Below, piece after piece: positions 43,123 to 60,811 of a stretch of 64,000 nt of DNA. Source of the stretch: Candidatus Kuenenia stuttgartensis. Its GTDB lineage: Bacteria; Planctomycetota; Planctomycetia; Pirellulales; UBA1268. How positions within the stretch are numbered: position 1 is the stretch's first letter; each line of letters starts with the position of its first letter. The DNA lies in assembly GCA_945897435.1 (NCBI GenBank), contig CAMDFJ010000004.1:10316-74315 (forward strand), in the 5' to 3' direction. Under the pieces are notes generated by a model, which saw only the letters and a program-made list of their open reading frames with translations, was not told the origin of the DNA and made no database searches. A program made the translations under genes and the position numbers.

Positions 43123-44337
43123 CTACTTTTCGAACTGCTCCCGGCTGGCGACGGGCATCTGCAGCGAGATCCTTTCGCGATTGCGAAACACGACCAGGTT
43201 CACGGTCCGGTCGGTGGTCGTGACGCTGACGAGACTGACGAGATGGTCGTCATCGTCGATAGGAGTCCCGTCGAATTCGAGGATCACGTCATCGGGGAGG
43301 ATGCCGGCCGTATTGGCAGGGGACCCCTCGGTGACGCCCGAAACCCGGGCCCCGACGGCCCGTACCATGCCGAGCCGCTGGGCGGTCCGCTGGGTGAACG
43401 TGCGATCGAGCGTGACGCCGAGGTAGGCCCGCGAGACCGCGCCATTCTCGACGAGCTGTCGGCTGACAAACATCACCATCGAGACCGGGATCGCAAAACC
43501 GATCCCCTCGCTGCCCCCGGAGTTGCTGGCGATCGCCGTGTTGAGGCCGACGACCTCGCCCCGGAGATTGACCAGCGGGCCGCCGCTGTTGCCCGGGTTG
43601 ATCGCGGCGTCGGTCTGGATGAAGTCCTGGAATCGAACCCCCTCCTCGCCGAGTTCGAGGTCCCGTCGTCCCTTCGCCGAGACGATGCCAAGCGTCACGG
43701 AGTGGGAGAGGCCGAAAGGGCTGCCGACGGCAAGTACCGTATCCCCGATCTCGACCGGGGCATGCTCGGCCAGGCGGGCGGGTTCGAGGTCGTCTCCATC
43801 GATTTCCATCACGGCGATGTCGGTGCTGGCGTCCGACCAGAGCCGGAGCGGCTTGATCTCACGACCGTCGTCGAGCCGGATGGTGATGTTGTCGAGTTCG
43901 GCCCGGTTGACCACGTGACGGTTGGTGATCACGACCGTGCGGCCGCCGACGAGCGTGATCACGCCCGATCCAGCCTCGTCCTCGTTGGCCTTGCCGTTCT
44001 TGGGGCGGAGGGCCGGCTTCTTGGTGTCGATGTGGACGACCGTCGGCCGAATCAGTTGCGTGAGCCGCCTCAGCTGGATGCTCTGCCGTTCGAGCAGTTC
44101 GGCGTCGCGCTCAACCTGACTGTAGAGTCGTTCCCGCTCTGATGCCGTCAGCCGCGTGGGTCGGACCGGATCGACCCGGCGGGATCCGGCTGCGGTCTGG
44201 CGCTCGATCGGAGTCAGCGGAACCGGCGGCTCCTCTCCCCTGGAAGCGATGCCGCCGAGGAGCATCATCGCGGGCAGCAGCGCGGTGGCAGAACGAACCA
44301 GAAATCCGCTGCAAATGCGGTCAACTGCGAACGGCAT
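43123..44337 (-). CDS. HtrA/DegP-family serine protease with PDZ domain
   Basis: 'VITNRHVV' (His), 'DIAVMEI' (Asp), 'GNSGGPLVN' (Ser), and a C-terminal PDZ ('GARVSGVTEGSPANTAGILPDDVILEFDG'). Signal/anchor after ATG 44337. Confidence 0.88.
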   Translation of the reverse strand: MPFAVDRICSGFLVRSATALLPAMMLLGGIASRGEEPPVPLTPIERQTAAGSRRVDPVRPTRLTASERERLYSQVERDAELLERQSIQLRRLTQLIRPTVVHIDTKKPALRPKNGKANEDEAGSGVITLVGGRTVVITNRHVVNRAELDNITIRLDDGREIKPLRLWSDASTDIAVMEIDGDDLEPARLAEHAPVEIGDTVLAVGSPFGLSHSVTLGIVSAKGRRDLELGEEGVRFQDFIQTDAAINPGNSGGPLVNLRGEVVGLNTAIASNSGGSEGIGFAIPVSMVMFVSRQLVENGAVSRAYLGVTLDRTFTQRTAQRLGMVRAVGARVSGVTEGSPANTAGILPDDVILEFDGTPIDDDDHLVSLVSVTTTDRTVNLVVFRNRERISLQMPVASREQFEK

Positions 44338-44406
44338 GAGGAAACACCCGGTGGGAAGGGCAGCACTTCGATCCAGCATACCCGACCCGGCAGGATTCGA
44401 TTCCTG

Positions 44407-44826
44407 TCAGGAAACGTCGATCTCGAGATCGAGAGAGTCCTCCCGCGACTCGGATGTCTCACGACCGCCGCCCATGCCGCTCCGCTCCACGTCTCGCTGG
44501 CAGGCGATGCAGACCGTGGCGTAGGGCAGTGCATTGAGCCGCGCCATCGGAATCTTGCAGCCGCAGTATTCGCAGGATCCGTACTGGCCGTTCCTCATCC
44601 GCTCGAGGGCGTTCTCGATCGAGGCGAGTTCACGACTTTCCACCTCGGCGAGCTGGGAACTGATCTCGTCCTGCGTCGAATCGAGGGCGGCGTCGATCAC
44701 ATCTCCCGGCGACTCGCTACGGAGTTCCCTGAGGAGGGAGAGATCGCCCGCAAGGGCACTGCGAAGAGCGTCGCGCCGACGCACGAGGATCGCCCGAAGA
44801 TTCAGAAGAGCTTCTTTTCTGGCCAT
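44407..44826 (-). CDS. DksA/TraR-family C4 zinc-finger protein
   Basis: Coiled-coil N-terminal half, then 'GSCEYCGCKIPMARLNALPYATVCIACQ' (CxxC-x17-CxxC). GGAGCA upstream of ATG 44826. Acidic C-terminal tail. Confidence 0.8.
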   Translation of the reverse strand: MARKEALLNLRAILVRRRDALRSALAGDLSLLRELRSESPGDVIDAALDSTQDEISSQLAEVESRELASIENALERMRNGQYGSCEYCGCKIPMARLNALPYATVCIACQRDVERSGMGGGRETSESREDSLDLEIDVS

Positions 44827-44936
44827 GGTTGGTGCTCCAGGCCCTTTGGGGAGACCCCGGAATCGGGGCCTCCGCCGGCGGGCCGCAACCAATACTACGG
44901 GTGCGGCCCGAGGATGGTTCGCGCGGTTGGAATGTT

Positions 44937-44956
44937 CGTTTTCTTTATCGAAAACG
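44937..44956. promoter_or_regulatory. AT-rich perfect palindrome upstream of the DksA-like gene
   Basis: CGTTTTC-TTTATC-GAAAACG, in the most AT-rich patch of the 232-bp intergenic region, about 110 nt upstream of ATG 44826. Confidence 0.25.
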
Positions 44957-45026
44957 CGGTCCGCACAGATCATGACAGTTGGCGGGGCCGACACAATTCG
45001 CCCAAAGTTCCCGTTTTCGGCCACGG

Positions 45027-45046
45027 CCTGCCCGGGCTCGGGCAGG
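45027..45046 (-). terminator. GC hairpin immediately downstream of the beta-propeller gene (end of operon)
   Basis: CCTGCCCG-GGCT-CGGGCAGG (8-bp perfect stem, 4-nt loop) located 13 nt after the stop at 45059-45061. No clear U-tract. Confidence 0.35.
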
Positions 45047-45058
45047 GGGGCGAATGCT

Positions 45059-46306
45059 TCAGTCCAAAGGCGGCTCGCGAAAACACCAGATCGTGCCATG
45101 CTCGGTGGCCATCACGAGCCGTCCAGCGGCCACGGCCGGCGACGAGGCGAAGCCATCCCCGGCCTCGAATTCCCAGGTCACCGATCCGTCGGCGGCGTCG
45201 AGGGAGACGATCCGACCGGCGGTGTCACCGACGATCGCCAGCAGTCTGCCGGAAGGAGTCACCACCACGACCGGCGAAGCGTCGACCCGGCCCCGCATCG
45301 GCCGCCGCCAGAGGCGGCTTCCGTCGGCCAGCGAGAAGGCCTCCACCGCCTTGCGGCGGGAGCCGACGACGGCGGCCGTGCCGGCGATCGCCGCACTCGA
45401 CCGATAGGCCATCCCGTTGGCGGCCGCTTCCGTCCGCCAGAGGACGACCCCCCGGGGCAGATCGATGGCGAAGAATACGCCTCCCTCGGTGCCGAAGAAC
45501 ACACGCCCGTCGTCTGCGGCCGGGGTCGTGCCGGTCGGGCCGTCGATCGGTACAGCGGCCTTTTCATCTCCGCTCTGGATATCGATCAGATGCAGTTTTC
45601 CGTCGCAGCCGGCAACGCATCCGAGGCCGGCTGCAATCGTCGGCGAGCAGCGAATCTGATCGGCCGTGGTGTGCTTCCATCGGAGGCTGCCGTCGGCGAG
45701 GTCGAGGCAGGCGAGCGAGGCGTCCTGCGAACCGACCAGCACACGTGCTTCGCCGCCACTGCCGACGATCGTCGGTCCACCCGAGATCTCGCCTTCGGTT
45801 CGATACTCCCAGAGGAGAGTTCCTGTCTTCGCGTCGAGCGCCCGGACCAGGCCGTCTGCATCGCCGACGACAACCCGCCGCGAATCTTCCGGGGAGATCG
45901 CGGCGGCCCCGGGGAATCCGGCGGCGGAGCGGAACGTCCATCGGGTCGCGCCCGTGTCGAGCGCGAGGGCGTGGAAGCAGCCGTCGAGGTCGCCGATGTA
46001 AATCGTGCCGTCTGCGATCACGGGTGTCGCCTCGAAGGCCGTGTCGGCGATCGTCCGCTGCCAGTGTTCGATCAGGGGGGGCGTCAGCGAGGCTGCAGAT
46101 CTGCCGCTGCCGGAGGGGGATCCACGGAACATCGGCCAGGCATCCGCGGGAGCGATCTCGGTCGCTCCGCCTGCCTGATCGGCGGCGAGCAACTGCGGGC
46201 AGACCGTCGGCCAAAAGAGGAGTGTCACGAGCAGCGTTCTGGCGGCGCGGCTGTGGCTGCCCGGCAGGCGGCCTCTCCTCACTACCGGTCTCACCACCGT
46301 GCTCAT
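45059..46306 (-). CDS. Exported PQQ-like / BamB-like beta-propeller repeat protein
   Basis: Repeated 'G..Y.G..DG.l.ALd..TG...W'-type blades ('GTIYIGDLDGCFHALALDTGATRWTF', 'DGLVRALDAKTGTLLWEY', and others). Signal 'TLLVTLLFWPTVCPQLLAADQ'. Its ATG overlaps the upstream stop (ATGA). Confidence 0.8.
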   Translation of the reverse strand: MSTVVRPVVRRGRLPGSHSRAARTLLVTLLFWPTVCPQLLAADQAGGATEIAPADAWPMFRGSPSGSGRSAASLTPPLIEHWQRTIADTAFEATPVIADGTIYIGDLDGCFHALALDTGATRWTFRSAAGFPGAAAISPEDSRRVVVGDADGLVRALDAKTGTLLWEYRTEGEISGGPTIVGSGGEARVLVGSQDASLACLDLADGSLRWKHTTADQIRCSPTIAAGLGCVAGCDGKLHLIDIQSGDEKAAVPIDGPTGTTPAADDGRVFFGTEGGVFFAIDLPRGVVLWRTEAAANGMAYRSSAAIAGTAAVVGSRRKAVEAFSLADGSRLWRRPMRGRVDASPVVVVTPSGRLLAIVGDTAGRIVSLDAADGSVTWEFEAGDGFASSPAVAAGRLVMATEHGTIWCFREPPLD

Positions 46307-47472
46307 CGGGCCGCCTCGTAGAGCAGCATCAGATCGTGGGCCGCGACCGGTCGGGGGTTGAATCCGGCGGTCCACTGGGAAGCCGCTGCGGCGGCAAGTC
46401 CGGCGACATCGACCGAACCGAGCCCAAGCTGCCCGAGCGAGGTCGCCAATCCGGCCTGTCGCAGAAGATCGCCGAGCCAAAGGCCGAGATCGCCACCGGC
46501 CGTCGGAGCTGCAGCCAGCTGGGCCTCGAGTTCTGCATATCGGTCGGGGATCCCGCCCTCGATTGCGGCATTGAACCGCACGACGTGCGGCAGCATCAGG
46601 CCGACCGCCTGCCCATGGACGACACCGTGCATCGCCGTGAGGGGGTTCGCCAGTGCATGAGCGGCGCCGAGCATGGCGTTTTCGATCGCCAATCCGGCCC
46701 AGGCCGCCCCGAGCTGCACGGCCGAGCGGGCGGCGACGTCGTCTGGTTCTGAAAATACCCGGGGCAGGTGGCTGGAGAGCAGCCGCCAGGCCTCGAGCGA
46801 GAAGATCCGCGAAGCCGGTGTGGCTGCCCGACTAACATGGCTCTCGATCGCGTGCGAGATCGCGTCGATGCCGGTCAGGGCGGCCACGCGGGCGGGCTGC
46901 GTGAGCGTGAGCGTGACGTCGAGGATCGCCGTTCGGAAGGCCGCCCGACTGTCGCCGCAGGCCATCTTGCGACCGCTCTCCGGGTCGCTGATGAGCGCGA
47001 ACGACTGCGTCTCGCTGCCGGTGCCGGCGGTGGTGGGCACAGCGATCGAGGGCAGCATCGGCCCCGTCGCCCGGCCACGGCCCTGGTAGTCGTGCATCGT
47101 TCCGCCGCAGGAGAAGAGGAAGTTGATCCCCTTTGCACAGTCCATCGAACTGCCGCCACCGAGGCCGACGATCAGGTCAGGGGCAAAGTCGCGGGCGAAC
47201 GCGGCTCCGGCATCGACATGAGTGGTGGTCGGATTTTCGCCGAACTCCGAGAAGCATTCGACCTCGAGGCCGGCCCGGGCGAGCGACTCGATGCCGATGG
47301 CGGCATGGCCGGCTGCAGCCACTCCCGGGTCGCTCACGAGCAGGGCCCGGCTGCCGCGCATTTCTCGGACCAGTTCCCGCCCCAGTTCTCCCAGTCGAAC
47401 GATCGAGCCCGCTCCGACCACGAGCCTCGTGTGCGAACAGAACTCGAAGTTTTCGCAGTCGCCGGCCATCAT
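46303..47472 (-). CDS. Iron-containing (group III) alcohol dehydrogenase
   Basis: 'LIVGLGGGSSMDCAKGI', 'VPTTAGTGSE', and His-rich metal site 'ISHAIESH...GAAHALANPL..HG..HG'. Confidence 0.9.
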   Translation of the reverse strand: MMAGDCENFEFCSHTRLVVGAGSIVRLGELGRELVREMRGSRALLVSDPGVAAAGHAAIGIESLARAGLEVECFSEFGENPTTTHVDAGAAFARDFAPDLIVGLGGGSSMDCAKGINFLFSCGGTMHDYQGRGRATGPMLPSIAVPTTAGTGSETQSFALISDPESGRKMACGDSRAAFRTAILDVTLTLTQPARVAALTGIDAISHAIESHVSRAATPASRIFSLEAWRLLSSHLPRVFSEPDDVAARSAVQLGAAWAGLAIENAMLGAAHALANPLTAMHGVVHGQAVGLMLPHVVRFNAAIEGGIPDRYAELEAQLAAAPTAGGDLGLWLGDLLRQAGLATSLGQLGLGSVDVAGLAAAAASQWTAGFNPRPVAAHDLMLLYEAAR

Positions 47473-48908
47473 CCGGCAACGCCAGCCGGAGCTTCCGCGG
47501 CCAGTTGCAGAGCCCGTGATCGGTAGAGGAAGTCGATGATGTTGCCCTCATGCGGCTGGAGCCAGTCGAGCTTCGTCGTCGGAATCGGGCCGATGTTGAG
47601 CCTGTCGATCGCCGGGGAGTCGATGAGCTCTGCCTGGAAGGTGGCGTCGTCGGTGACCGCGGTGGCGACGAGCGTCGGCCCGATCCGCTCGAGCATCCGG
47701 GCCTGCGGGCACTCGACAACGTTCACGAAGGGAAACATGTACTCGGCCCTGGCGATCTCTGGATCGGGAGTCGCACAGTGGACGACCGTCGGTCGCAGCC
47801 AGCCGCAGCGTTCCCCCTCGACGAACCGCGGGCCGTAGGCCGCCGTGGCGTGGCTGACGCCGGCCGCGGCGAGGCCGGCCTCGATCTGCTCCCAGGTGGC
47901 CTTCGCCGCCCCCGGCACCGTGAAGGCGGCGAGGCGGGCTTCAGGATCCTCCGGCGGCCTGACGTCGATGGGGCCGAGCCGCTCGGCGAGGGCCTCGGCA
48001 ATCGCCTTCGTGTGTCGGCTGGCGTAGACCGCCGAGGCGTTGATGCAGCCCCGGCCGCTGTTTGCGGCGACGCTCTCGACGATCACGTCGAGATACCGTT
48101 CCCAGTCGTCCACGCAATCATCGCCGAGGAGGATCTTCGAGAAACCGGGACCGTGGACCTGAACGTTTGGATTGCCGCGATACTGCTCGACAGTCTTGGC
48201 ACTGCCGAAGATCATGCTCCTGCGGCAGCCCGCCAGCATGGTGGCGCCGACGTCGGTGGCCCCCGGGTAGAGGCCGATCGACTCGGCCGGAATGCCCGCC
48301 TCGATGAACGCCGCCGCCATCCGATAGGGCGTCCAGGGCTCCTGGCCGCCGGGCTTGAGCAGGAGCCCGACGCCGAGTGCGATCACCGGCAGCCAGAGCG
48401 TGTGCACGCCCGGGGAATTGGAGGGAAGCACGAGCCCGAGCACCGGCGACTGTGCCTGGTAGCTGACGACGACACCACGGTGCTCGCGGCCATAGCCCCG
48501 CCAGAGGATCTCGGGCGGCAGGCCCCGCGAGAGCGCGTCGAGCATCCGATCCATGTTCGAGAGCACGAACAGATTTTTCTGCATGTTCGACCGGCAGAGC
48601 GACTCGGGCAGGCCGGTCGTGGCCGACTGCTGCTTGACGAAGTCGTCTGGAGACTGCCGCGAGTCGCCCACCTGGAGCGTGCCGTGGGCGTAGAGGTTGC
48701 CCGCGGTCTGGAGCCGCTCGACGATCTCCTCCGGATCGATCGCCAAGAGGGCGGCCCGGGCCTGCCCCGCCTTCTGGAGATCGCGGCCCAGCATCGCACC
48801 TCCGACCTGGCTGACCTCGGCGATCGGCTCGCCGGTCAGGAAGTGGACGAGGTGGGTGCGTTCGAGTGACTCATACGGCTTGCCGAATCGCCAGGCGGGA
48901 AGGTGCAT
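47469..48908 (-). CDS. Non-canonical aldehyde-dehydrogenase-superfamily protein (acylating ALDH / LuxC-like acyl-CoA reductase candidate)
   Basis: ALDH-like layout: 'LGLVLPSNSPGVHTL...LLLKPG' and catalytic-Cys region 'ANSGRGCINASAVY'. The usual ELGG(K/N) Glu box reads 'HGPGFSKILLGDD'. AGGA upstream of ATG 48908. Confidence 0.8.
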   Translation of the reverse strand: MHLPAWRFGKPYESLERTHLVHFLTGEPIAEVSQVGGAMLGRDLQKAGQARAALLAIDPEEIVERLQTAGNLYAHGTLQVGDSRQSPDDFVKQQSATTGLPESLCRSNMQKNLFVLSNMDRMLDALSRGLPPEILWRGYGREHRGVVVSYQAQSPVLGLVLPSNSPGVHTLWLPVIALGVGLLLKPGGQEPWTPYRMAAAFIEAGIPAESIGLYPGATDVGATMLAGCRRSMIFGSAKTVEQYRGNPNVQVHGPGFSKILLGDDCVDDWERYLDVIVESVAANSGRGCINASAVYASRHTKAIAEALAERLGPIDVRPPEDPEARLAAFTVPGAAKATWEQIEAGLAAAGVSHATAAYGPRFVEGERCGWLRPTVVHCATPDPEIARAEYMFPFVNVVECPQARMLERIGPTLVATAVTDDATFQAELIDSPAIDRLNIGPIPTTKLDWLQPHEGNIIDFLYRSRALQLAAEAPAGVAG

Positions 48909-49007
48909 AGACGAGGATCCTGGATTGAAACTCTTGGGATTACGACGAAGATTCTAGCAACCTGCCCAAACCGCTGGCGACGGTCGAGGCCTCGACTTCA
49001 TAGGTGG

Positions 49008-49068
49008 GGAGGCGTCGCCCACTTCCGGGCGGAGCCCGGCAAGGCTGCACGGGCCATGGATGGCCGTG
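49008..49068. repeat. 61-bp direct repeat, copy 1
   Basis: GGAGGCGTCGCCCACTTCCGGGCGGAGCCCGGCAAGGCTGCACGGGCCATGGATGGCCGTG. Identical to 49104-49164. Confidence 0.95.
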
Positions 49069-49103
49069 ACTCCGGGTCGACACGGCCGAACGACTGCGAC
49101 GCT

Positions 49104-49164
49104 GGAGGCGTCGCCCACTTCCGGGCGGAGCCCGGCAAGGCTGCACGGGCCATGGATGGCCGTG
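49104..49164. repeat. 61-bp direct repeat, copy 2
   Basis: Perfect copy of 49008-49068, separated from it by a 35-bp spacer. Ends 11 nt before the stop codon of the upstream (minus-strand) gene. Confidence 0.95.
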
Positions 49165-49175
49165 CAGCCGTGAAA

Positions 49176-50306
49176 CTAGTACACGCCCACAGTCGTCGCG
49201 CCGGCCAGGGCCCTGAACGGGCGGACGCCGCTGATTCCGTCCCAGGGGTACTTTGCATAGGGAAGTTCCCGTTCCCCCTCGTCGCGTTCGAGGAAACCCG
49301 GCACGAAGGTCTCTTTCGTGAGCGTGGTCAACTTGACCCGTCCGGTGCCGCCGTAGGGCACGACGGAGTTCGTGTCGTCGAAGTTCACCACCTCGATCAC
49401 GGCCCTGGGCTGCGGGGCGTAGTAGGCGATCGTGTAGCCGTCGGCCGGCACGACCGGCCGCGAGGCGGCCAGGCCCATCAGTGTGTTGCCGTAGGTGGGC
49501 GTCATGTAGGCGCCGTCGAGCAGTTCCTCGACCGCGAACCGGGTCCACTGGGGCGTGAACTCGGTGCCGCCGGAGAAGATGCCCGTGATCCCCGCCTTGC
49601 GGATCGTCGTGCCCTTCTTTTCCAGGGCGAGGGCGAGGGACTCGAGCAGTTTCGGGGTGGTGAACATGCAGCGGACATCGTGCCCCGCCTCGAGGATCGT
49701 GATCACCTGGTCGATGCAGTGCTGCTTGTAGGCCTCGAGATGCTCCATCCAGCCCTTCTGGATCAGTTTGATGACCCAACGGGGATCGAGATCGACGCAG
49801 AAGCAGATGCCACCGCGAAACTGGGCCAGGTGTTCGATCGACAGCCGCAGTCGGCGGGGACCGCTGGGGCCGAGCATCAGCCAGTTGGCTCCGCGGGGAA
49901 AAAACTCCTCCGGCAGCGTGTCGCTGAATTGCTCGTAGTCGGTGCGGAAGTCGCGGATGTTGACCCGCGACTTGGGAACGCCGGTCGTGCCGCCCGTCTC
50001 GAAGACGTAGGCTGGCTGGTCGGCGAAGCCCTTCGGTATCCAGCGGCGAACCGGGCCCCCGCGGAGCCACTCATCCTCGAACGGAGGAAACTTTTTCAGG
50101 TCGTCGTAACAGCCGACCTCCTTGATCGGGTCGAAGCTGAGCGAGCGGGCGTAGTCGAGCCAGAACGGGCAGCCGGTCGAGGGGTGGAAATGCCAGGCCA
50201 TCATCTCCACGGTGTGGGCGTCGAGCGCCGCCCGTGCCCCCGCAACGGCAGCATCGTCGGCGACCTCGAACACGGGAGGCTTGGCGGTGGAGTTGACCGT
50301 GGCCAT
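49176..50306 (-). CDS. Adenylate-forming enzyme (PaaK / coenzyme-F390-synthetase / LuxE-like)
   Basis: P-loop-like 'FETGGTTGVPKS' near residue 105 and 'TPTYGNTLMG' (YGxTE-like). 376 aa. GAGGA lies 8 nt upstream of the ATG. Confidence 0.8.
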   Translation of the reverse strand: MATVNSTAKPPVFEVADDAAVAGARAALDAHTVEMMAWHFHPSTGCPFWLDYARSLSFDPIKEVGCYDDLKKFPPFEDEWLRGGPVRRWIPKGFADQPAYVFETGGTTGVPKSRVNIRDFRTDYEQFSDTLPEEFFPRGANWLMLGPSGPRRLRLSIEHLAQFRGGICFCVDLDPRWVIKLIQKGWMEHLEAYKQHCIDQVITILEAGHDVRCMFTTPKLLESLALALEKKGTTIRKAGITGIFSGGTEFTPQWTRFAVEELLDGAYMTPTYGNTLMGLAASRPVVPADGYTIAYYAPQPRAVIEVVNFDDTNSVVPYGGTGRVKLTTLTKETFVPGFLERDEGERELPYAKYPWDGISGVRPFRALAGATTVGVY

Positions 50307-50377
50307 GGAAAGATCCTCGTTGTGAAAAGATGCTGGGGAAATCGAGACCGTGAACCTGCGGGCGGAGGGACTGGGTT

Positions 50378-50908
50378 TCAGGCGTCGGCTGGGTTGCCAC
50401 CCGTCGGCAGCGGCGCCCCGAGCTGGGCGAAGAGTTGCAGCACGCCGTTGAAGTGGGCCAGTCGCGGCCCGTAGCGGTCGATGAATTCGCCGAGAGCATA
50501 CTCGCTGTCAGTGAAGTCCTCGGCGTTCTCCGCGGCATCGCGGGCGATCCCGGCAAGGAACTCGACATGCACCTTGGCGAGCGACTCGGCCGCGCGGCGA
50601 CAGGACCGGGCGAGTTCGGGGTTCGCCTCCTTCCAGGCCTTGAGTTCGGCGACCCGCTGTCGCTGCTGGAGCGACACCTGATTGACCAGTTCCACGAGCA
50701 GGTCGCAGGAACGCATCTGCACGGCGAGCATCTCCCGAAGGAGCCTGTTCGTTTCGGCGGCATCGGCCGCGGCTGCGGGCCCCGTGGCGACCGAACTGGC
50801 GGAGATATCGACCTGGGTGAATCCGGGGGGGCCGTTGTGCATGATGGCGTCCAATCTGCGCGAGGGTGAATACCGCCAGACCTCCGGTATCGTAGGCAGA
50901 GCGGTCAT
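50378..50908 (-). CDS. Hypothetical, predicted mostly helical protein (first gene of the operon)
   Basis: 'NRLLREMLAVQMRSCDLLVELVNQVSLQQRQRVAELKAWKEANPELARS...'. No motif recognised. Start is uncertain (ATG 50908 or 50842). Confidence 0.5.
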   Translation of the reverse strand: MTALPTIPEVWRYSPSRRLDAIMHNGPPGFTQVDISASSVATGPAAAADAAETNRLLREMLAVQMRSCDLLVELVNQVSLQQRQRVAELKAWKEANPELARSCRRAAESLAKVHVEFLAGIARDAAENAEDFTDSEYALGEFIDRYGPRLAHFNGVLQLFAQLGAPLPTGGNPADA

Positions 50909-51059
50909 CCTTTTCCACGAAGCGGCGGGATTTTCGCGGCAACCGTCAGGGTTTTCCCAGCTTCCATCCCTCGCCGGAAGATTCCATTCCTGTCCTTCGC
51001 GACCCGCAGCCTCCGGTGCCTTTGAAGGCCGCAGCTCAAGTGCAGTCTCCCGACACCCG

Positions 51060-51596
51060 ATGGTTGGAGCGATGGCCAACAGCACGCAGCAGCAAGTCGA
51101 TCAGGCCTATGGCTTCCTGACGACGGTCGATTCGCCTTCCCACGGCCTGTTCGGGGGTTACCTGATCGTCGATCTCGAGGGTCGGCCGCTGGAGTTTCAC
51201 TGCACGGCCCCGGTGCGGGTCTCGCGGGCCCAGCAGATCCTCTACGGGGCGACCCTCCACGGGCATCTGCACGGCAGACAGATCGGCGGCACGCTGCTGG
51301 CGGAGGGGGGCGTCGTGCCGAGGCTCGTGTTGACCGATCAGGAGCCGCTGCTGCAGGCCCGGCCGCATACCCAGTTGCCGCTGGCCCTCGTGACGGCCTC
51401 GCAGGGGGCGGAACAGGCCGGGCCGACCGCCCATGCTGGCTTCAGTCTCGGCAGCCTGACGGTCGTGCCACATGCCACCGACCGGGCCGACGAAACAGTT
51501 TTGCGGGAGCATCTCGAGGGACTCATCCAGGCGGTCGATCTCAACGAGCCCTTCGAACGGATCCGGGCCGCGATCGAAGAGGCGCAGCGGCATTAG
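51060..51596 (+). CDS. Hypothetical 178-aa protein upstream of the SNF2 helicase
   Basis: Non-repetitive sequence with a conserved-looking core 'GLFGGYLIVDLEGRPLEFHCTAPVRVSRAQQILYGATL'. Alternative ATG at 51072. Its stop lies 31 nt before the SNF2 start. Confidence 0.6.
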   Translation: MVGAMANSTQQQVDQAYGFLTTVDSPSHGLFGGYLIVDLEGRPLEFHCTAPVRVSRAQQILYGATLHGHLHGRQIGGTLLAEGGVVPRLVLTDQEPLLQARPHTQLPLALVTASQGAEQAGPTAHAGFSLGSLTVVPHATDRADETVLREHLEGLIQAVDLNEPFERIRAAIEEAQRH

Positions 51597-51626
51597 GCAG
51601 CGGCATTCGTCTGCCGGCGGAGAGCG

Positions 51627-53402
51627 ATGGCGACCCCAGACACACCCGCTCCCGGAGCGGTCCAACGAGTGCAGTCATGGCGGGCCACCGAGGTCGTCCT
51701 GCCAACGACCGGGATCCTGTCGCGGATGGTCTGTCAACTGCCGACGCCAGCGGCGCTGCGGCTGCCGATCGGAGTCTCCAGGCCGACCGCGACCACCGTT
51801 CCGCTGCTCGAGGCGAGGCCGGCCGTGGAGCGGTTTCTGTTCTCCGGGCAGGCTGCGGCGGCACCGCCATCCCGGCCGCCGGTCCGGCCCAGGATCGCGG
51901 CCCCGTCGCTTCCCGCCGAGGCCTCGGCCGACGCCGCCGATCCAGCGCTCCGCCGCCGCACCCGGATCGCGCCGCCCAGGGATGTCGTCAAGCGATCGGA
52001 GCGGTTTTTCTTTCTGCTCCAGCCCGACCTGGAGACGATTCTGGAGACCAGTCGGCTGGAGTTTCCCCGGCAGCCGTTCCCGTTCCAGTTCGACGGCATG
52101 GCCTTTCTCGTGCCGCGGCATGCCGCCGTGCTGGCCGACGAGATGGGACTCGGCAAATCGATGCAGGCGATCTCGTCGCTGCGGCTTCTGATCCGTTCCG
52201 GCGAGGCGCGACGGGTGCTCGTCGTCTGCCCGAAGGGTCTGGTCTCGAACTGGGCTCGGGAACTCGCCGACTGGGCGCCGGAACTCGTGGTGGCGGTGAT
52301 CGAGGGGGATCAGCGGCGTCGCCAATGGCAGTGGTCGCTGCCCGAGGTGCCGGTGAAACTGGCCAACTACGAGGTGGTGGTCCGCGACCGCGATCTGGTC
52401 GCCGAACTGGGCCTGGAGTTCGACCTCGTGGTTCTCGACGAGGCCCAGCGGATCAAGAATCGCGACAGCCAGACGAGCCAATCGGTGCGGGCTCTGCGGC
52501 GCGGCCGCAGCTGGGCGCTGACAGGCACGCCCGTCGAAAACAGCGCCGACGACATCGTCGGCCTGTTCGAGTTCGTGGCCCCGGGGCATCTCAACGACCG
52601 CATGTCGCCCCGGGAGCTCGGGGCCGCAGCCGCCGACCACGTCCTGCGGCGAACGAAAGACAAGGTGCTCAAGGACATGCCGCCGCGGCTCAACCGCGAC
52701 GAGCGGATCGAGCTCACCGCCGAGCAGCGGGAGACCTATCGAAGGGCGGAGGAGGAGGGGGTGCTGCGGCTCGCCGGACTCGGCCAGCAGGCCACGATCC
52801 AGCACGTCTTCGAACTCGTCCTTCGACTCAAGCAGATCTGCAACTTCGACACCGCGACCGGCGAGAGCGCGAAACTCGACCGGCTCGAGGCCGAACTGGA
52901 AGAGATCCACGCCAGTGGGAAAAAGTCGCTCGTCTTCAGCCAGTGGGTGGCGACACTCGGCCGGCTGCGGGAGCGGCTGTCGCGGTTTGGCGCCATCGAA
53001 TATCACGGCGGCATGTCGACCATCGCCCGCGATGATTGTCTCCGTCGCTTCAAGAACGACAGCCAGCACGGCGTACTGCTCCTCTCCTATGGGGCGGGGG
53101 CTGTCGGCCTCAACCTGCAGTTTTCCCAATACGTCTTCCTCTTCGATCGCTGGTGGAATCCCGCCGTCGAGGATCAGGCGATCAACCGGGCCCACAGGAT
53201 CGGGGCCGCGGGCGCCGTCACCGTGACCCGGTATCTGTCCGTCGACACGATCGAGGAGCGGATCGACGAGGTGCTGCGGTCGAAGCGGGATCTCTCCGAC
53301 ACGATCCTCTCGCAGGCCGAACCGCCCGCCGCCAGCGGCCTGACGGCCGAAGAGATCTTCGCGCTCTTCAGGCTCTCCCCGCCACGACGGGCCGCCGCCT
53401 AG
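51627..53402 (+). CDS. SNF2-family DEAD/DEAH-box helicase (ATP-dependent translocase)
   Basis: Motif I 'LADEMGLGKSMQ', motif II 'VVLDEAQRIKN', 'ALTGTPVEN', and C-terminal helicase 'LVFSQW', 'GAGAVGLNL', 'WWNPAVEDQAINRAHRIG'. The N-terminal ~140 aa are Pro/Ala-rich with no recognised domain. Confidence 0.88.
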   Translation: MATPDTPAPGAVQRVQSWRATEVVLPTTGILSRMVCQLPTPAALRLPIGVSRPTATTVPLLEARPAVERFLFSGQAAAAPPSRPPVRPRIAAPSLPAEASADAADPALRRRTRIAPPRDVVKRSERFFFLLQPDLETILETSRLEFPRQPFPFQFDGMAFLVPRHAAVLADEMGLGKSMQAISSLRLLIRSGEARRVLVVCPKGLVSNWARELADWAPELVVAVIEGDQRRRQWQWSLPEVPVKLANYEVVVRDRDLVAELGLEFDLVVLDEAQRIKNRDSQTSQSVRALRRGRSWALTGTPVENSADDIVGLFEFVAPGHLNDRMSPRELGAAAADHVLRRTKDKVLKDMPPRLNRDERIELTAEQRETYRRAEEEGVLRLAGLGQQATIQHVFELVLRLKQICNFDTATGESAKLDRLEAELEEIHASGKKSLVFSQWVATLGRLRERLSRFGAIEYHGGMSTIARDDCLRRFKNDSQHGVLLLSYGAGAVGLNLQFSQYVFLFDRWWNPAVEDQAINRAHRIGAAGAVTVTRYLSVDTIEERIDEVLRSKRDLSDTILSQAEPPAASGLTAEEIFALFRLSPPRRAAA

Positions 53403-53541
53403 CAGGCCGGGGAAGCCGAGCTATCGGGTGCTCTCCGTGGAGACGGTAGACTCTTCCAGCGGGTCTGAAACGTTTTCTCCCGGTCGCCATCCGCGTCGGC
53501 TTGCGTCCGTATCGATTCCCTCTTCATCGCTGTCCTCCATC

Positions 53542-55131
53542 ATGCAATCCCTTTCCGGCCAGTCCTTCATCGGTTTCGCCCGCAGCCAGTCGGCCGGACC
53601 GGTCCAGCGGTGCGTCAACCCTGCCACCGCGACCGAGCTGCCGACAGATTTCTTTCAGGCAACCCCTGCCGATCTCGAACAGGCCTGCAGCCTGGCCCTG
53701 GCCGCCACACCAGTGCTCGCCGGGCTCAGTGGCGGACAGAAGGCCGAATTCCTCCACGGGATCGCGATTCGGATCGAAGCCGCGACCCCGGATCTCGTCT
53801 CCCGCGCAACCCAGGAGACCGGGCTCCCGGAGGCCCGTTGCCAGGGGGAGATCGGACGCACGATCGGCCAGCTCCGCCTCTTCGCCGACCTCGTCGCCGC
53901 GGGTGATTGGATCGACGCCCGGATCGAGACGGCCGATCCCGACCGCAAGCCCCTGCCAAAGCCCGATCATCGTTCGATGCTCCGCCCGCTCGGGCCGATC
54001 GCCGTGTTCTGCGCCAGCAATTTCCCCTTCGCCTACTCCGTTGCCGGAGGTGACACGGCCTCGGCGTTCGCCGCCGGCTGTCCGGTCATCGTGATGGCCC
54101 ACCATGCCCACAGCGGCACGGCCGAGATCATGGGCGGGCTGGTGGTGGATGCCGTTCGTGCCAGCGGCCTGCCCGAAGGGACGTTTTCGATGCTCATGGG
54201 GAGTGGCCGTGTCGTGGGGCAGCAACTCGCCAAACACCCCGTCATTCGCGGCGTCGGCTTTACCGGATCGCGAGCGGGAGGGCGTGCCCTGATGGACACC
54301 GCCGCGGCCCGGCCGGTGCCGATTCCCGTGTACGCCGAAATGAGCAGCGTGAACCCTGTCGTCCTTCTGGATGGGGCGATCGCCTCACGTGGGGATACGA
54401 TAGCCGCGGGACTGGCCGCCTCCTGCACCCTCGGTGTCGGACAATTCTGCACCCAGCCTGGCCTGATCATTCTCGAGCGGACAGCCGCCTCCGAGGCCTT
54501 TGTGACGAAACTCGGCCAGCTCTTCGCCGCGGCGGCGGAGGGCACGATGCTGACGGCCGGCATCCATCAGGCCTATGTCGACGGTCTTGCCGTCCGAGCC
54601 GCGCGGGCCGGCGTCAGTCTGGTCGCTCGCGGCACATCGGGCGGCCAGCCCAACCGCGCAACGCCGACGCTCTTCGCCACATCGGCAAAGGCCTTCATCG
54701 CCGACGGCAGTCTTCAGGAGGAGATCTTCGGTCCCTGCTCGCTCGTGGTCTGGTGCGAGAACGCAGCTGAACGCAGGCAGGTCGTGGCGGCCCTCCATGG
54801 AAGCCTGACCGCCACCGTTCACGCGACCGATGCCGAACTCGGCACGAACGCCGACCTGATCGGCCAGCTCGAGGCCATGGCGGGGCGGGTGGTCGTGAAC
54901 GGCTTTCCGACCGGCGTGGAAGTCTCGCATGCGATCGTGCACGGCGGCCCCTACCCGTCGCTCTCGGACGGTCGCACGACCTCCGTCGGCTCCAACGCCA
55001 TCTACCGCTTCACGCGTCTCGTCTGCTATCAGAACTTCCCCGACGCCGCCCTCCCCGCCGAACTGCGGGCGGCGAACCCGCTGGGCATTTCCCGACTCGT
55101 GAACGGCGTTCGCCAATCGGGCTCCATCTAG
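53542..55131 (+). CDS. Aldehyde dehydrogenase, 2,5-dioxovalerate (alpha-ketoglutarate semialdehyde) dehydrogenase-like
   Basis: '[32 protein letters not shown]', 'GFTGSRAGG', '[10 protein letters not shown]' match the KGSADH-type ALDH layout. Sits in the glucarate cluster. Start at ATG 53542. Confidence 0.85.
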
Positions 55132-55163
55132 AACCTCCTCCTCAGAAGGACCCCAGGTGCCCG

Positions 55164-56087
55164 ATGCCTCCTTCCATGTCTCCTCTCGAACTCCAGAACA
55201 TCCTCTCCGCCGGCCTGCTCTCATTCCCAATCACCGACTTCACCCCCGCTGGTGAGTTCAACCCCGCCGGGTACGCCGATCGCCTGCGCTGGCTGGCGCC
55301 GTATGGCGCCTCGGCGCTCTTCGCCGCCGGCGGCACGGGAGAATATTTCTCGCTCGAACCGCGGGAATACTCTGCCGTCATCAGGACCGCGGTCGAGACC
55401 TGTGACGGCCTCGTGCCGATCCTCGCAGGTGCCGGCGGTCCGACCAGGGTGGCGATCCAATACGCCCAGGAGGCCGAGCGGCTCGGTGCAAAGGGGATCC
55501 TGCTGCTCCCGCATTACCTGACCGAGACGAATCAGGACGGTGTCGCGGCGCACGTCGAGCAGGTCTGTCGGTCTGTCAGGCTTGGAGTCGTGGTCTACAA
55601 CCGGAACGTCTGCCGCCTGCAGCCGCATCATCTTGAGAAGCTGGCCGACAGCAATCCCAACCTGATCGGCTACAAGGACGGTCTCGGCGACATCGAACTG
55701 ATGGTCTCGATCCGCCGTCGGCTGGGGAGCCGGCTCTGTTACCTCGGCGGCCTGCCGACGGCGGAGGTCTACGCCGCCGCCTACAAGGCGATGGGCGTGC
55801 CGGTCTACTCGTCGGCCGTCTTCAATTTCATTCCTCAGACCGCGATCGATTTCTACCGCGCCGTCGCGGCTGACGACTTTGCCACGCAGAATCGCCTGCT
55901 CGACAGCTTCTTCCTGCCCTACCTCGAAATCCGCAACAAGAGCGCCGGCTACGCTGTCAGCATCGTCAAGGCCGGCGCCAGGATCGTCGGCCACGACGGG
56001 GGGCCGGTTCGCCCACCCTTGACCGACCTCAAGCCCGCTGAGATGGAACAGCTCGCCGGGCTCATCGCGGAGGCGGGGGTGGGCTGA
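55164..56087 (+). CDS. kdgD: 5-dehydro-4-deoxyglucarate dehydratase (DHDPS/NAL family)
   Basis: '[10 protein letters not shown]', '[13 protein letters not shown]', 'IGYKDGLGD' (Schiff-base Lys region). Confidence 0.88.
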
Positions 56088-56189
56088 TTTTTGCCAGGCC
56101 AGTCTGATTCGAGAGCCGCCGGGCAGTCCTGAGACGGCGGCTCTGGTGACCTTCAAACCCGATCGCAGAGCCTTCCACGAGCAGAAGCC

Positions 56190-57473
56190 TTGGACGACGT
56201 GACCGACCTCCAGAATCACCCGCTCTCCGTCGCGGTCTCGAAGGTCAAGTGGCGGATCCTGCCGCTGTTCATCGTGATGTTCATCGTGAACTACGTCGAT
56301 CGGGTGAACGTCAGTTTCATCAAGGAACAGCTGACACTCGATCTCGGCCTGAACGACGAGGCATTCGGATTCGGGGCCGGACTGTTCTTCGTCGGCTACG
56401 CGCTGTTCGAAGTCCCCTCGAACATGATGCTCCAGTGGCTCGGGGCCCGACGCTGGCTGGCGATCATCGCCCTGCTCTGGGGCGGCTTTGCGACCTGCAT
56501 GGCCTTCGTGCGGACCCCAGAGGCGTTTTATTGGCTTCGCTTCTTCCTCGGTGCCGCCGAAGCCGGTTTCTTCCCGGGAGTGATCTACTTCTTCACCCGC
56601 TGGCTGCCCTCGGCCGAACGCGGCAAGGCGATCGCCCTCTTTCTGAGTGGTTCTGCGATCGCCTCGATCATCTCCGGCCCGCTTTCAGGCTACCTCCTGC
56701 AGTTCCAGCCCTACGGACTCAAAGGATGGCAGTTCATGATCGTGGCCGAAGGCGCCGTCTCCGTGATCCTGGCCATCTTCACCTGGTTCTGGCTGGATTC
56801 GACGCCCGGCGAAGCCCGTTGGCTTTCCGAGAGCGAACGACTCGCCCTGACGGACAGGCTCCGGGCGGAGGCGCAGGCAGTCAGACAGCGGCCCGAAATC
56901 TGGGAAGTGCTCGGAAGCGGCCTGCAGTTGGCGCTCTTCTGCCTGATCTACTTCGCCATCCAGTTGACGATCTACGCCGCGACCTTCTGGCTCCCCACGA
57001 TCATTCGCTCCATGGGAACGCTCACTGACATGCAGGTGGGCTGGCTGAATTCGCTCCCCTGGATCATTTCCATCTTCGGGATGTATCTGGCCGCGGCTGG
57101 GGCGGCCCGCTGGAAACATCAGCAGGCCTGGGTTGCCGGCGCCCTGCTCGTCGCCGGAGTTGGCATGCTGTTCGCCACCGTCGGCGGTCCGTTCTTCGCC
57201 TTCACGGCGATCTGTTTCGCCGCCCTCGGGTTCAAGTCGGCCGCGTCACTCTTCTGGCCGATCCCGCAGGGCTACTTCGACGCCCGAATTTCCGCCGTGG
57301 CGATCGCCCTGATCAATTCGCTCGGAAATCTCGGCGGCTTCGTGGCGCCCTACGCATTCGGCGTGCTCAAGCAGCAGACCGGCTCGATTCAGGGGGGCCT
57401 CTACGGGCTCGCCGTGACGTCAGTCCTCGCCGCCGGCCTGGTCTTTCTCACCCGCACCAAACCCCGATCCTAG
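56190..57473 (+). CDS. MFS transporter, anion:cation symporter family (glucarate/galactarate/hexuronate-type)
   Basis: '[15 protein letters not shown]', '[26 protein letters not shown]' are typical of ACS-family acid-sugar permeases. TTG start is uncertain. Confidence 0.85.
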
Positions 57474-57490
57474 CGGACGTCCGTTCTCAC

Positions 57491-58813
57491 ATGACCCCAG
57501 TCGTCGAATCGATCCGCGTCGTGCCAGTGGCCGGGCACGACAGCATGCTGCTCAATCTGAGCGGGGCCCACGGGCCCTTCTTCACCCGCAATATCGTCCT
57601 GATCAGGGATAGCTCCGGCCACACCGGCCTCGGCGAGGTTCCCGGTGGCGAGAAGATCCGGCAGACGATCGAGGACGCCACGCCCTTTCTCATCGGAGAG
57701 GAGATCGGCCGCTACGAACATCTGCTTGCGACCGTCGGCCAGACGTTCTCCGATCGCGACTCGGGTGGCCGTGGCCTGCAGACGTTCGATCTGCGGGTGA
57801 CGATCCATGCCGTCACGGCCATCGAATCGGCCCTTCTCGACCTCCTCGGCCAACATCTCGACAAGCCCGTCGCGGCCCTGTTGGGCAGGGGCCAGCAGCG
57901 GTCCGAGGTCGAGATGCTCGGCTATCTGTTCTTCATCGGCGACCGACGCCGGACGACGCTCGGATACCGTGATGAGGCCGACTCTCCCCACGCCTGGCAT
58001 CGCCTGCGAAATGAAGAGGCCCTGACGCCGGAATCGATCGTCCGGCAGGCCGAGGCCGCCCAGGAGCGATTCGGCTTCCAGGACTTCAAGCTCAAGGGGG
58101 GCGTGCTCAGCCCGGCCCGTGAAATCGAGGCTGTGCGGGCCCTCGCCTCGCGCTTTGCGGGGGCCCGAATCACCCTCGATCCCAACGGCGCCTGGCGGCT
58201 CGGGGAAGCCATCGAGGCCTGCCGGAATCTCAGCGGCGTGCTTGCCTATGCCGAAGATCCCTGCGGCGCCGAAGACGGCTTCTCCGGACGTGAAATCCTG
58301 GCCGAGTTCAAACAGGCCACCGGTCTCCGCACCGCCACGAACATGGTGGCCACCGACTGGCGGCAGTTCGGGCACGCCCTCAAACTCGGGGCCGTCGACA
58401 TCCCGCTCGCCGACCCGCACTTCTGGACCATGCGGGGCTCGGTCAAGGTCGCCCAGGTCTGCGAGGAGCACGGACTCACCTGGGGTTCGCACTCCAACAA
58501 CCATTTCGACATCTCGCTCGCCATGTTCACCCACGTGGGAGCTGCCGCGCCGGGCGATGTCACCGCCATGGACACCCATTGGATCTGGCAGGAAGGGCAG
58601 CGGCTCACCAGGGAGCCGTTGCGGATCAAGGGGGGCAGGATCGCGGTTCCCGAGAAACCGGGCCTCGGGATCGAGATCGATCCGGCCCGACTCGAGGCCG
58701 CCCACCAGCTCTACGGCAGGCTCCCCTCAGGCTCGCGGGACGACGCCGTCGGCATGCAGTTCCTGATCCCCGGTTGGAAGTTTGATCACAAGAAGCCCTG
58801 CATGCTGCGGTAG
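57491..58813 (+). CDS. gudD: Glucarate dehydratase (enolase superfamily)
   Basis: '[17 protein letters not shown]', 'FKLKGG', 'LDPNGAW', 'YAEDPC', 'ATNM' are characteristic GudD blocks. Confidence 0.92.
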
Positions 58814-60767: not shown

Positions 60768-60811
60768 GCCGGGCTTCCTTCGTCCAGGCCAGGGTCCTTC
60801 CAAAAAACCAG

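Follow-up and report, generated by a model that had tools for sequence, protein, structure and literature searches.

The window analyzed here, a 64,000-nucleotide stretch of contig CAMDFJ010000004.1 (assembly GCA_945897435.1), has a G+C content of 64–70% and contains a cluster of five genes on the minus strand. At the center of the cluster are an adenylating enzyme of the acyl-CoA synthetase, non-ribosomal peptide synthetase and luciferase (ANL) superfamily and a protein related to aldehyde dehydrogenases (ALDHs), which together resemble the EhpF/EhpG pair and probably constitute a carboxylate-reducing system. In the order of transcription, the features of the cluster are:

50378–50842, minus strand: small helical protein, 154 aa; the open reading frame (ORF) runs on to 51085 (50378–51085)
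49176–50306, minus strand: EhpF-type truncated ANL adenylating enzyme, proposed carboxylate-activating subunit, 376 aa
48909–49175, minus strand: intergenic spacer between the adenylating and ALDH-like genes, 267 nt, with direct repeats and a sigma-70-like promoter match
47469–48908, minus strand: proposed EhpG-type ALDH-like thioester reductase subunit, 479 aa, with Cys288 as nucleophile and His252 in place of the general-base Glu
46303–47472, minus strand: group III iron-containing alcohol dehydrogenase (Fe-ADH), proposed aldehyde reductase, 389 aa
45059–46306, minus strand: BamB/PQQ_2-type β-propeller, probably exported, 415 aa

All five ORFs reported in an earlier note on this DNA are present on the minus strand, within 45059–50842. 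The helical protein at the head of the series exists, but the start given for it, at 50908 (176 aa), is probably 66 nt too far upstream; since its homologues align from the methionine (ATG) at 50842, the protein is probably 154 residues long. The ATGA start/stop overlaps can be read directly, as GGATGATGG at 47469–47472 and CGATGAGCA at 46303–46306. Translational coupling of the cluster, as proposed in the note, therefore holds for the ALDH-like, Fe-ADH and propeller genes, which are joined by these overlaps, but not for the first two genes, which are separated by gaps. The helical gene ends 71 nt before the adenylating gene, and a GAGGA ribosome-binding site lies 8 nt upstream of the ATG of the latter.

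The spacer between the adenylating and ALDH-like genes contains two perfect 61-nt direct repeats (49008–49068 and 49104–49164, period 96), corresponding to a 96-bp tandem duplication. Its RNA fold has a z-score of −2.76, with strong hairpins formed by the repeat, and a sigma-70-like match (48980–48951, TCGCCA-18-TAGAAT with a TG extension) is located just upstream of the ALDH-like start. No further copy of the 61-nt repeat was found in the window or in the 177 related loci fetched. A dispersed element was considered and rejected, the copies being confined to the spacer, and the repeat is treated as a local tandem duplication. A search of positions 44000–52000 against Rfam returned no known RNA family or riboswitch at E≤1. 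In relatives, the same gap varies from 0 to about 3100 nt, and the cluster is interrupted in some relatives by HicAB and PemK toxin-antitoxin genes or by an integrase-bearing island (L090 11146–11612, L002 11200–11535, L091 6239–9795). These insertions and the variable gap indicate that the genes are linked but do not form an indivisible operon, and obligatory coupling of all five is improbable. Very long ORFs on the opposite strand, such as one of 523 aa facing the adenylating gene (48903–50474, plus strand) and one of 612 aa facing the propeller gene, have no homology support and are the usual artefact of high G+C content.

The 376-aa protein had been described as an adenylate-forming enzyme, and comparison with known structures supports this. 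It is a full-length homologue of EhpF (PDB 3hgu/3l2k; phmmer E 1.5e-41, residues 33–373 aligned to 28–365 of 369), whereas ordinary ANL enzymes match only at E of about 0.1 in the PDB search, and the Pfam AMP-binding match is partial and sub-threshold (27.3 bits versus a cut-off of 29.9). The P-loop, 'ETGGTTGVPKS' (pattern (S/T)GG(S/T)TGxPK), is present together with 'YGNTLMG', and ten diverse members of the family all have G111, G112, G116 and P118. The C-terminal ANL subdomain, which carries motifs A8–A10, is missing: the chain ends at the EhpF C-terminus, and Pfam detects no AMP-binding_C domain. The paper on the EhpF structure reportedly describes an atypical ANL enzyme that lacks the C-terminal domain and proposes that it acts with EhpG to reduce a phenazine carboxylate via an acyl-adenylate. 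Several homologues of the window enzyme carry the NCBI product name 'arylcarboxylate reductase'. Judged by these relatives, the enzyme is predicted to adenylate a free, possibly aryl, carboxylate.

A bona fide PaaK in a phenylacetate-type context, which had been named as an alternative, is not what the comparisons indicate. No NCBIfam PaaK model matches, the sole hit being to the DVU_1553 family (17.9 bits versus a cut-off of 300); Pfam detects no AMP-binding_C_2 domain; and no paa genes occur among the neighbours scanned. The JGI annotation of this enzyme as 'PaaK-like' is a generic label. In a survey of the adenylating family, comprising 1,448 representative clusters, two notable fusions were found: the EhpF-like domain is fused to a class-III aminotransferase in P0219 (824 aa, Streptomyces) and to a zinc alcohol dehydrogenase in P0265 (725 aa). 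Both fit an aldehyde product that is processed further by the next enzyme.

The ALDH-like protein belongs to the ALDH superfamily (Pfam Aldedh, 69 bits; cut-off 23) and is closer to EhpG-type proteins than to ordinary NAD(P)-dependent ALDHs. BLASTP gives E-values of 2e-35 to Pantoea EhpG and 2e-39 to the corresponding partner in Streptomyces goshikiensis; the best classical ALDH in the PDB reaches 2e-11. All NCBIfam ALDH models fall far below their cut-offs, the best scoring 41.6 bits versus 615. The protein retains the catalytic Cys and oxyanion Asn, as well as the Lys and Glu that contact the cofactor. As first noticed from the motifs, the general-base Glu of the classical ELGG box is replaced within 'HGPGFSK': in two independent HMMER alignments to solved ALDHs, His252 of 'VHGPGFSK' lies opposite the Glu of 'LEAGGKS' and 'FELGGKN', and Cys288 lies opposite the catalytic Cys, that of KauB in one case and of 2-aminomuconate semialdehyde dehydrogenase in the other.

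This residue pattern is strictly maintained among the Planctomycetes-Verrucomicrobia-Chlamydiae (PVC) group. His252 is invariant in 68/68 Pirellulales-type copies and 44/44 other PVC copies, and Asn164, Lys185, Cys288 and His453 are likewise invariant across more than 100 PVC copies, with Glu389 nearly so. In four partners from outside the PVC group, the position equivalent to Glu268 of ALDH2 is occupied by Gln, Arg, Tyr or Leu. The loss of the Glu in all family members examined thus identifies it as a family trait, of which the His is a PVC-specific refinement. The best-supported assignment of the 479-aa protein, based on these alignments, is an EhpG-type reductase partner rather than a classical ALDH.

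EhpF/EhpG of Pantoea agglomerans, from the D-alanylgriseoluteic acid system, resembles the window pair in several respects. The adenylating enzymes are homologous over their full length and both lack the C-terminal ANL domain; EhpG shares with the ALDH-like protein the presence of the Cys, the absence of the Glu and a C-terminal 'PH(D/E)G..FL' motif; and in both loci the adenylating gene immediately precedes its partner. However, sequence identity is low (31% for the adenylating enzymes, 26% for the ALDH-like proteins), and the Pantoea pair belongs to a phenazine cluster (phzA/B, D, E, F, G) on a plasmid, whereas phz genes are absent at the window locus. His252 and Lys185 are specific to the PVC proteins, the equivalent residues of EhpG being Gln and Arg. 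Unlike EhpF/EhpG, the window pair has genes for an Fe-ADH and a probably exported propeller linked to it, and its conservation resembles that of a core gene.

Homologues of the adenylating and ALDH-like genes also lie side by side in Pantoea, Burkholderia, Streptomyces goshikiensis and the haloarchaeon Halalkalicoccus, the second being annotated as 'aldehyde dehydrogenase family protein'. The pair is accompanied by phenazine genes in Pantoea, by 3-deoxy-D-arabino-heptulosonate 7-phosphate (DAHP) synthase and anthranilate-synthase-family genes in Burkholderia, and by DAHP synthase and PabB in S. goshikiensis. On the Halalkalicoccus plasmid, an SSF symporter gene lies directly upstream.

A second precedent is provided by GriC (AMP-binding) and GriD (ALDH family) of Streptomyces griseus, which convert 3-amino-4-hydroxybenzoate into the aldehyde via an acyl-AMP, according to the passage of PMC10179220 that cites Suzuki et al. 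2007. As that passage presents it, separate AMP-forming and ALDH-family proteins reduce a free aryl acid via acyl-AMP, a reaction logic to which the window pair is likened; GriCD differs in serving secondary metabolism, with a product that stays an aldehyde. The best-supported reading of the window pair is that it is of the EhpF/EhpG type and would work like GriC/GriD, in which two proteins jointly reduce an aryl carboxylate at the expense of ATP and NAD(P)H. To our knowledge, only two examples of this two-protein type have been examined so far, both of them in antibiotic or pigment clusters.

Two other likenesses put forward in the earlier note did not survive comparison as family assignments. 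LuxC/LuxE (with LuxD) is a functional analogue, in which an acyl-AMP synthetase delivers the acyl group to the Cys of a non-hydrolytic ALDH-superfamily reductase and NADPH releases the aldehyde; the protein sizes are also similar. However, hmmscan finds neither PF05893 (LuxC) nor PF04443 (LuxE) at E≤0.01, and EhpF/EhpG is nearer; in addition, the window cluster has no LuxD-type acyltransferase, and its substrate class is probably different. AdhE likewise combines an ALDH-fold enzyme with a following group III Fe-ADH to carry out two successive reductions to an alcohol. It starts from acyl-CoA, whereas the window system would start from the free acid, the adenylating enzyme taking the place of CoA activation. 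The NCBIfam AdhE model matches the Fe-ADH alone (model positions 479–760) and not the ALDH-like protein, which argues against a split AdhE.

Type I carboxylic acid reductases of Nocardia and Mycobacterium catalyze the same net reaction (acid + ATP + NADPH to aldehyde + AMP + pyrophosphate), typically on aromatic acids. They are single polypeptides with a phosphopantetheine carrier and a reductase of the short-chain dehydrogenase/reductase type, whereas the window reductase has the ALDH fold and would use a Cys thioester. Membership in this class was rejected: in the Pfam search, none of the five proteins showed a PP-binding or NAD_binding_4 domain, and the cluster contains no phosphopantetheinyl transferase. 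It had also been stated that no characterized pathway with exactly this composition was known to the note's author. GriC/GriD now supply a precedent for the first two steps, but the cluster as a whole is undescribed in the searchable literature: searches on EhpF/EhpG, GriC/GriD, arylcarboxylate reductase and Planctomycetes/Verrucomicrobia carboxylic acid reductase returned no description of it, and the Planctopirus essential-gene paper does not mention these families.

The third enzyme is a group III Fe-ADH, as had been claimed, with both Fe-ADH domains above the Pfam thresholds (PF00465, 144.6 bits, cut-off 31.3; ADH_Fe_C PF25137, 110.7 bits, cut-off 27). Its relatives in the PDB, which match over the full length at E 1e-41 to 1e-54 (down to 7.5e-54), include methanol and 1,3-propanediol dehydrogenases and lactaldehyde reductase, and its sequence shows a GGGS motif and Asp/His-rich motifs.

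The product of the last gene has the predicted propeller fold (PQQ_2, 187.5 bits; Beta-prop_ACSF4, 162 bits), but the specific BamB or PQQ-dehydrogenase families are not reached: the NCBIfam BamB equivalog scores 127.9 bits against a cut-off of 285, and the PQQ-dependent alcohol dehydrogenase model 64.6 against 480. The propeller is probably exported, as judged from its N-terminus, which by eye resembles a signal peptide and does so more clearly in orthologues; the protein of the window was not picked out by a crude hydrophobicity scan. The small helical protein matches no Pfam or NCBIfam model. Its single-sequence AlphaFold2 model (pLDDT 73.7) consists of three long helices, and a Foldseek comparison of this model with the PDB returned no match at E<1, the best being a CHMP4B hairpin at E 3.0. 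Conserved motifs of the helical family include 'NPELA..CR.AAE.L' and 'DR.GPR.AH.NG'.

The adenylating enzyme has thousands of close relatives, with 86–92% identity among the best 120, and at least 589 species-representative genomes carry a relative. The best 80 of these are labelled as Pirellulales or Planctomycetia metagenome-assembled genomes (MAGs), apart from a few probable mislabels. To assess linkage, counts were made over loci with enough flanking sequence around the adenylating gene. Downstream of it, the ALDH-like gene is found in 56/59 Pirellulales and 37/51 other PVC loci, the Fe-ADH gene in 47/50 and 28/45, respectively, and the propeller gene in 42/44 Pirellulales loci; the helical gene lies upstream in 63/72 eligible Pirellulales loci and 0/70 other PVC loci. 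Co-localization in related genomes, on which the original proposal depended, is therefore well established. The gene order is also above chance, since it recurs in dozens of independent genomes. Among the Pirellulales, median identities to the window proteins are 86% for the adenylating enzyme, the best conserved of the cluster, 81% for the ALDH-like protein, 67% for the helical protein, 62% for the Fe-ADH and 56% for the propeller. These values identify the catalytic pair, adenylating enzyme plus ALDH-like protein, as the most constrained part of the cluster.

A planctomycete-type cluster also occurs in MAGs labelled Candidatus Kuenenia, Chitinophagaceae, Thermoanaerobaculia and Solirubrobacterales (L011, L012, L015, L019, L033, L043, L044, L046, L049, L081; P0047); these labels are probably binning or labelling errors. 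One protein, P0130, was considered as a divergent outgroup (52% identity) and set aside: most genes on its contig (L088) are split, and its divergence therefore probably reflects, in part, assembly or frameshift errors rather than a separate lineage.

Loci from the wider PVC group were collected by a profile-guided metagenome scan and by a homologue search seeded with one of its hits. The scan was seeded on a 47%-identical representative, P0140, and returned none of the P0140 clade, yet it returned Verrucomicrobiota and other PVC loci. The core order of adenylating, ALDH-like, Fe-ADH and propeller genes is also present in Verrucomicrobiota and other Planctomycetota, where identity of the adenylating enzyme is 50–59%. 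The helical protein is confined to the Pirellulales, and exported propellers are conserved associates across the PVC group. Linkage of this kind could in principle be nothing but inherited synteny, with no common pathway, above all for the helical protein and the propeller. The genes for an SNF2 helicase, a DksA-like protein and HtrA are also syntenic in Pirellulales with no evident functional link, the insertions of toxin-antitoxin and integrase genes described above are tolerated within the cluster, and the helical protein is missing from the non-Pirellulales PVC loci fetched. Nevertheless, the core order persists from Planctomycetota to Verrucomicrobiota at the 50–59% identity level while the flanking genes are wholly different, and the genes are tightly packed or overlapping. 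We regard synteny without shared function as highly improbable.

The homologies, the residue pattern and the conserved gene order support the route from acid through aldehyde to alcohol that was suggested at the outset. We favor, as a probable reading, a carboxylic acid reductase made of two proteins of the EhpF/EhpG type, whose product an iron alcohol dehydrogenase would then take over. In the proposed mechanism, the truncated ANL enzyme would adenylate a free carboxylate to an acyl-AMP, and Cys288 of the ALDH-like partner, possibly within a complex of the two proteins, would attack the acyl-AMP to give a thioacyl-enzyme. This intermediate would not be hydrolysed, because there is no Glu to activate water. 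Hydride transfer from NAD(P)H would then reduce the thioacyl-enzyme and release the aldehyde, with His252 as a candidate general acid, and the Fe-ADH would reduce the aldehyde to a primary alcohol. The reductive direction of the whole sequence is likewise a prediction.

The absence of the Glu can be accommodated in other schemes. The acyl group could go to CoA, an amine, a carrier or the helical protein, with the ALDH-like protein acting as a CoA- or phosphate-acylating dehydrogenase in a catabolic sequence from alcohol through aldehyde to acyl-thioester. ALDHs that lack this Glu are generally known to include CoA-acylating enzymes, some EhpF-like enzymes are encoded beside polyketide synthase or acyl carrier protein genes with no ALDH partner, and the transporter, MarR and periplasmic propeller genes at other PVC loci (see below) resemble an uptake and catabolism locus. 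Against this, the ALDH-like protein groups with EhpG-type partners rather than with acylating ALDHs (the methylmalonate-semialdehyde dehydrogenase and PaaZ models score 30–33 bits), the genes of the pair stand next to each other in four phyla and two domains, and no thiolase, CoA-transferase or β-oxidation genes are conserved nearby. Transfer to another acceptor is thus rather improbable.

A missing hydrolytic Glu would also preserve thioester energy, so that the enzymes might run in the oxidative, energy-conserving direction, from alcohol through aldehyde and thioacyl-enzyme to acyl-AMP, with the adenylating enzyme reversed to form ATP from AMP and pyrophosphate. AMP-forming acyl-CoA synthetases have been reported to make ATP in reverse in a syntroph. 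This scheme has no precedent in the family, GriCD is described as reductive in the passage cited above, and the genomic context offers no pointers such as pyrophosphate metabolism; we consider it extremely improbable.

More weight attaches to the fate of the aldehyde. It may be the real product, or be passed on by transamination, condensation or incorporation into a glycoconjugate, in which case the Fe-ADH would have another substrate, an oxidative direction or an ErcA-like regulatory role and there would be no acid-to-alcohol pathway. The aldehyde is a useful intermediate in the GriCD pathway, as the cited passage has it, and in the pathway proposed for EhpFG. The class-III aminotransferase fusion shows that an aldehyde can go on to an amine. 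No NCBIfam equivalog reaches its cut-off for the Fe-ADH, and the best match is ErcA (257 bits versus 550); its median identity of 62% is below that of the catalytic pair. However, the ErcA score is less than half of its cut-off, a fusion of an EhpF-like domain with a zinc alcohol dehydrogenase exists, and the Fe-ADH gene follows the ALDH-like gene directly in 47/50 Pirellulales and 28/45 other PVC loci, with an ATGA overlap in the window. An aldehyde end product therefore seems unlikely, and a reductase pair followed by alcohol formation remains our preferred reading.

Several observations weigh against this reading. The top NCBIfam model for the Fe-ADH, although far below its cut-off, describes a regulatory alcohol dehydrogenase-like protein, and it is hard to see what an exported propeller would do in a reduction that takes place in the cytoplasm. 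The cluster is so highly conserved that a core function is suggested, which the analogy with aryl acids does not explain. The presumed homology to GriC/GriD is taken from NCBI product names, and the EhpF/EhpG chemistry is itself a published structural and bioinformatic proposal. The occurrence of EhpF-like genes beside polyketide synthase or acyl carrier protein genes, with no ALDH partner, indicates that acceptors other than an ALDH-like protein can receive the acyl group in this family. Judged by eye, the ALDH-like protein also lacks the second glycine of the cofactor motif of classical ALDHs. The assignment of a UbiC-like protein, discussed below, is weak, and its gene lies outside the window. 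Finally, the function proposed for the PVC members is drawn from homology and genomic context.

In other PVC loci, the core genes are embedded in a co-directional, tightly packed array of about 14–17 genes (L175 759–21083; L139 1680–16372), whose components come in this order:

1: often a MarR regulator
2: two to four exported or lipoprotein-type PQQ_2 propellers
3: a DUF3311 protein and an SSF symporter (carboxylate-type), or an MFS transporter
4: the adenylating gene, ALDH-like gene, Fe-ADH and propeller
5: a radical SAM enzyme resembling HemN, which reaches no specific NCBIfam cut-off
6: a tentatively UbiC-like protein with a length of about 187 aa
7: a flavoprotein resembling halogenases and hydroxylases
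8: a family 4 glycosyltransferase (GT4)
9: a hotdog thioesterase
10: a small membrane protein and a PaaK-like ligase

Among 80 metagenome loci, large upstream propellers are present in 49 and the SSF symporter in 33. None of the SSF, HemN-like, GT4, thioesterase and α/β hydrolase proteins reaches an NCBIfam cut-off. In a second Pirellulales clade, the propeller gene is still followed by the radical SAM gene; in L063 and L090 the 187-aa gene and GT4 also follow the radical SAM gene, as does the thioesterase in L090. In L089, L090 and L091, the loci of this clade that were inspected gene by gene, an α/β hydrolase gene lies between the helical and adenylating genes. The radical SAM and 187-aa genes are not found within the 64-kb window, and the window's own clade has lost these additional genes from the locus.

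One further gene of the window may belong to this larger set:

60764–62119, plus strand: GT4 glycosyltransferase, loosely linked, tentative member of the system, 40% identical to the GT4 of the L175 cluster

The similarity to the latter protein (L175 18223–19527) extends over 438 aa (E 1e-85). The window gene is about 10 kb from the cluster and overlaps GidA/MnmG by 4 nt (58917–62119, plus strand); in close relatives, a GT4 lies about 5 kb upstream of the cluster, and in L090 and L063 it comes immediately after the radical SAM and UbiC-like genes. The similarity suggests that the window GT4 may be a dispersed remnant of the larger PVC cluster.

The substrate may be an aromatic acid such as a hydroxybenzoate, either chorismate-derived or imported, a suggestion that we make by analogy and with low confidence. 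It is based on the relatives with interpretable context, which act on aryl carboxylates, and on the UbiC-like, MarR and symporter genes of the PVC cluster. The profile of the 187-aa protein aligns almost from end to end with the chorismate lyase UbiC of Escherichia coli (hhalign probability 61%, E 7.9e-5), sharing the motifs LL..D.MT..E, REV.L, PLG and YGR, and it also aligns with PDB 2nwi at E 4.5e-4; the Pfam chorismate-lyase models do not match it even at E≤10. MarR regulators often sense phenolic acids, and MarR and DUF3311/SSF genes are located upstream of the core in other PVC loci.

A more speculative possibility, which we hold doubtful, is that the window preserves the Pirellulales remnant of an undescribed core pathway of Planctomycetota and Verrucomicrobiota that makes or salvages a chorismate-derived compound of the benzyl-alcohol type, for example a glycoside, a component of the envelope or the precursor of a cofactor. 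The propellers, the transporter, the EhpF/EhpG-type reductase, the Fe-ADH, the HemN-like radical SAM enzyme, the UbiC-like lyase, the flavoprotein, GT4 and the thioesterase would, equally tentatively, be its cooperating members. Pathways for menaquinone, ubiquinone, tetrapyrroles, pyrroloquinoline quinone (PQQ), quinoprotein maturases and low-molecular-weight thiols are not supported, as their defining genes are not consistently present. They had been considered because of the HemN-like, UbiC-like, flavin adenine dinucleotide (FAD)-related and GT4 genes and of MenF/MenC neighbours in L089.

On the other side of the helical gene, and divergent from the cluster, a pair of plus-strand genes (51105–53402) encodes first a protein of about 163 aa, which matches neither Pfam nor NCBIfam models, and then a helicase of the SNF2 family. 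Both genes stay syntenic with the cluster across Pirellulales; the conserved motif reads 'GGYL...GRPLEFHCTAPV..RAQQIL'. Between the SNF2 gene and GidA, the window contains genes for a classical ALDH, a dihydrodipicolinate synthase-family protein, an MFS transporter and an MR_MLE-family enzyme (53428–58813, plus strand). Since SNF2 adjoins GidA in L001 and L002, this block appears to be an inserted catabolic island of the sugar-acid type.

The chemistry proposed for the cluster is itself known; what is new is a PVC-wide variant with an Fe-ADH and propellers, together with its distribution and conservation. The two-protein reductases of the EhpF/EhpG and GriC/GriD type represent a little-studied, carrier-free route from acid to aldehyde, which is seen here at scale. 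The invariant His at the former Glu site provides a natural sequence panel for the conversion of the ALDH fold into a reductase, and a compact acid-to-alcohol system that dispenses with a phosphopantetheine carrier could serve biocatalysis. The pair is among the best conserved in its neighbourhood and is regularly accompanied by an Fe-ADH and exported propellers, possibly pointing to an unrecognized, widespread metabolism in environmentally abundant PVC bacteria. If the cluster is indeed the remnant of a larger conserved pathway, that pathway would serve a core function of these bacteria rather than the production of a secondary metabolite.

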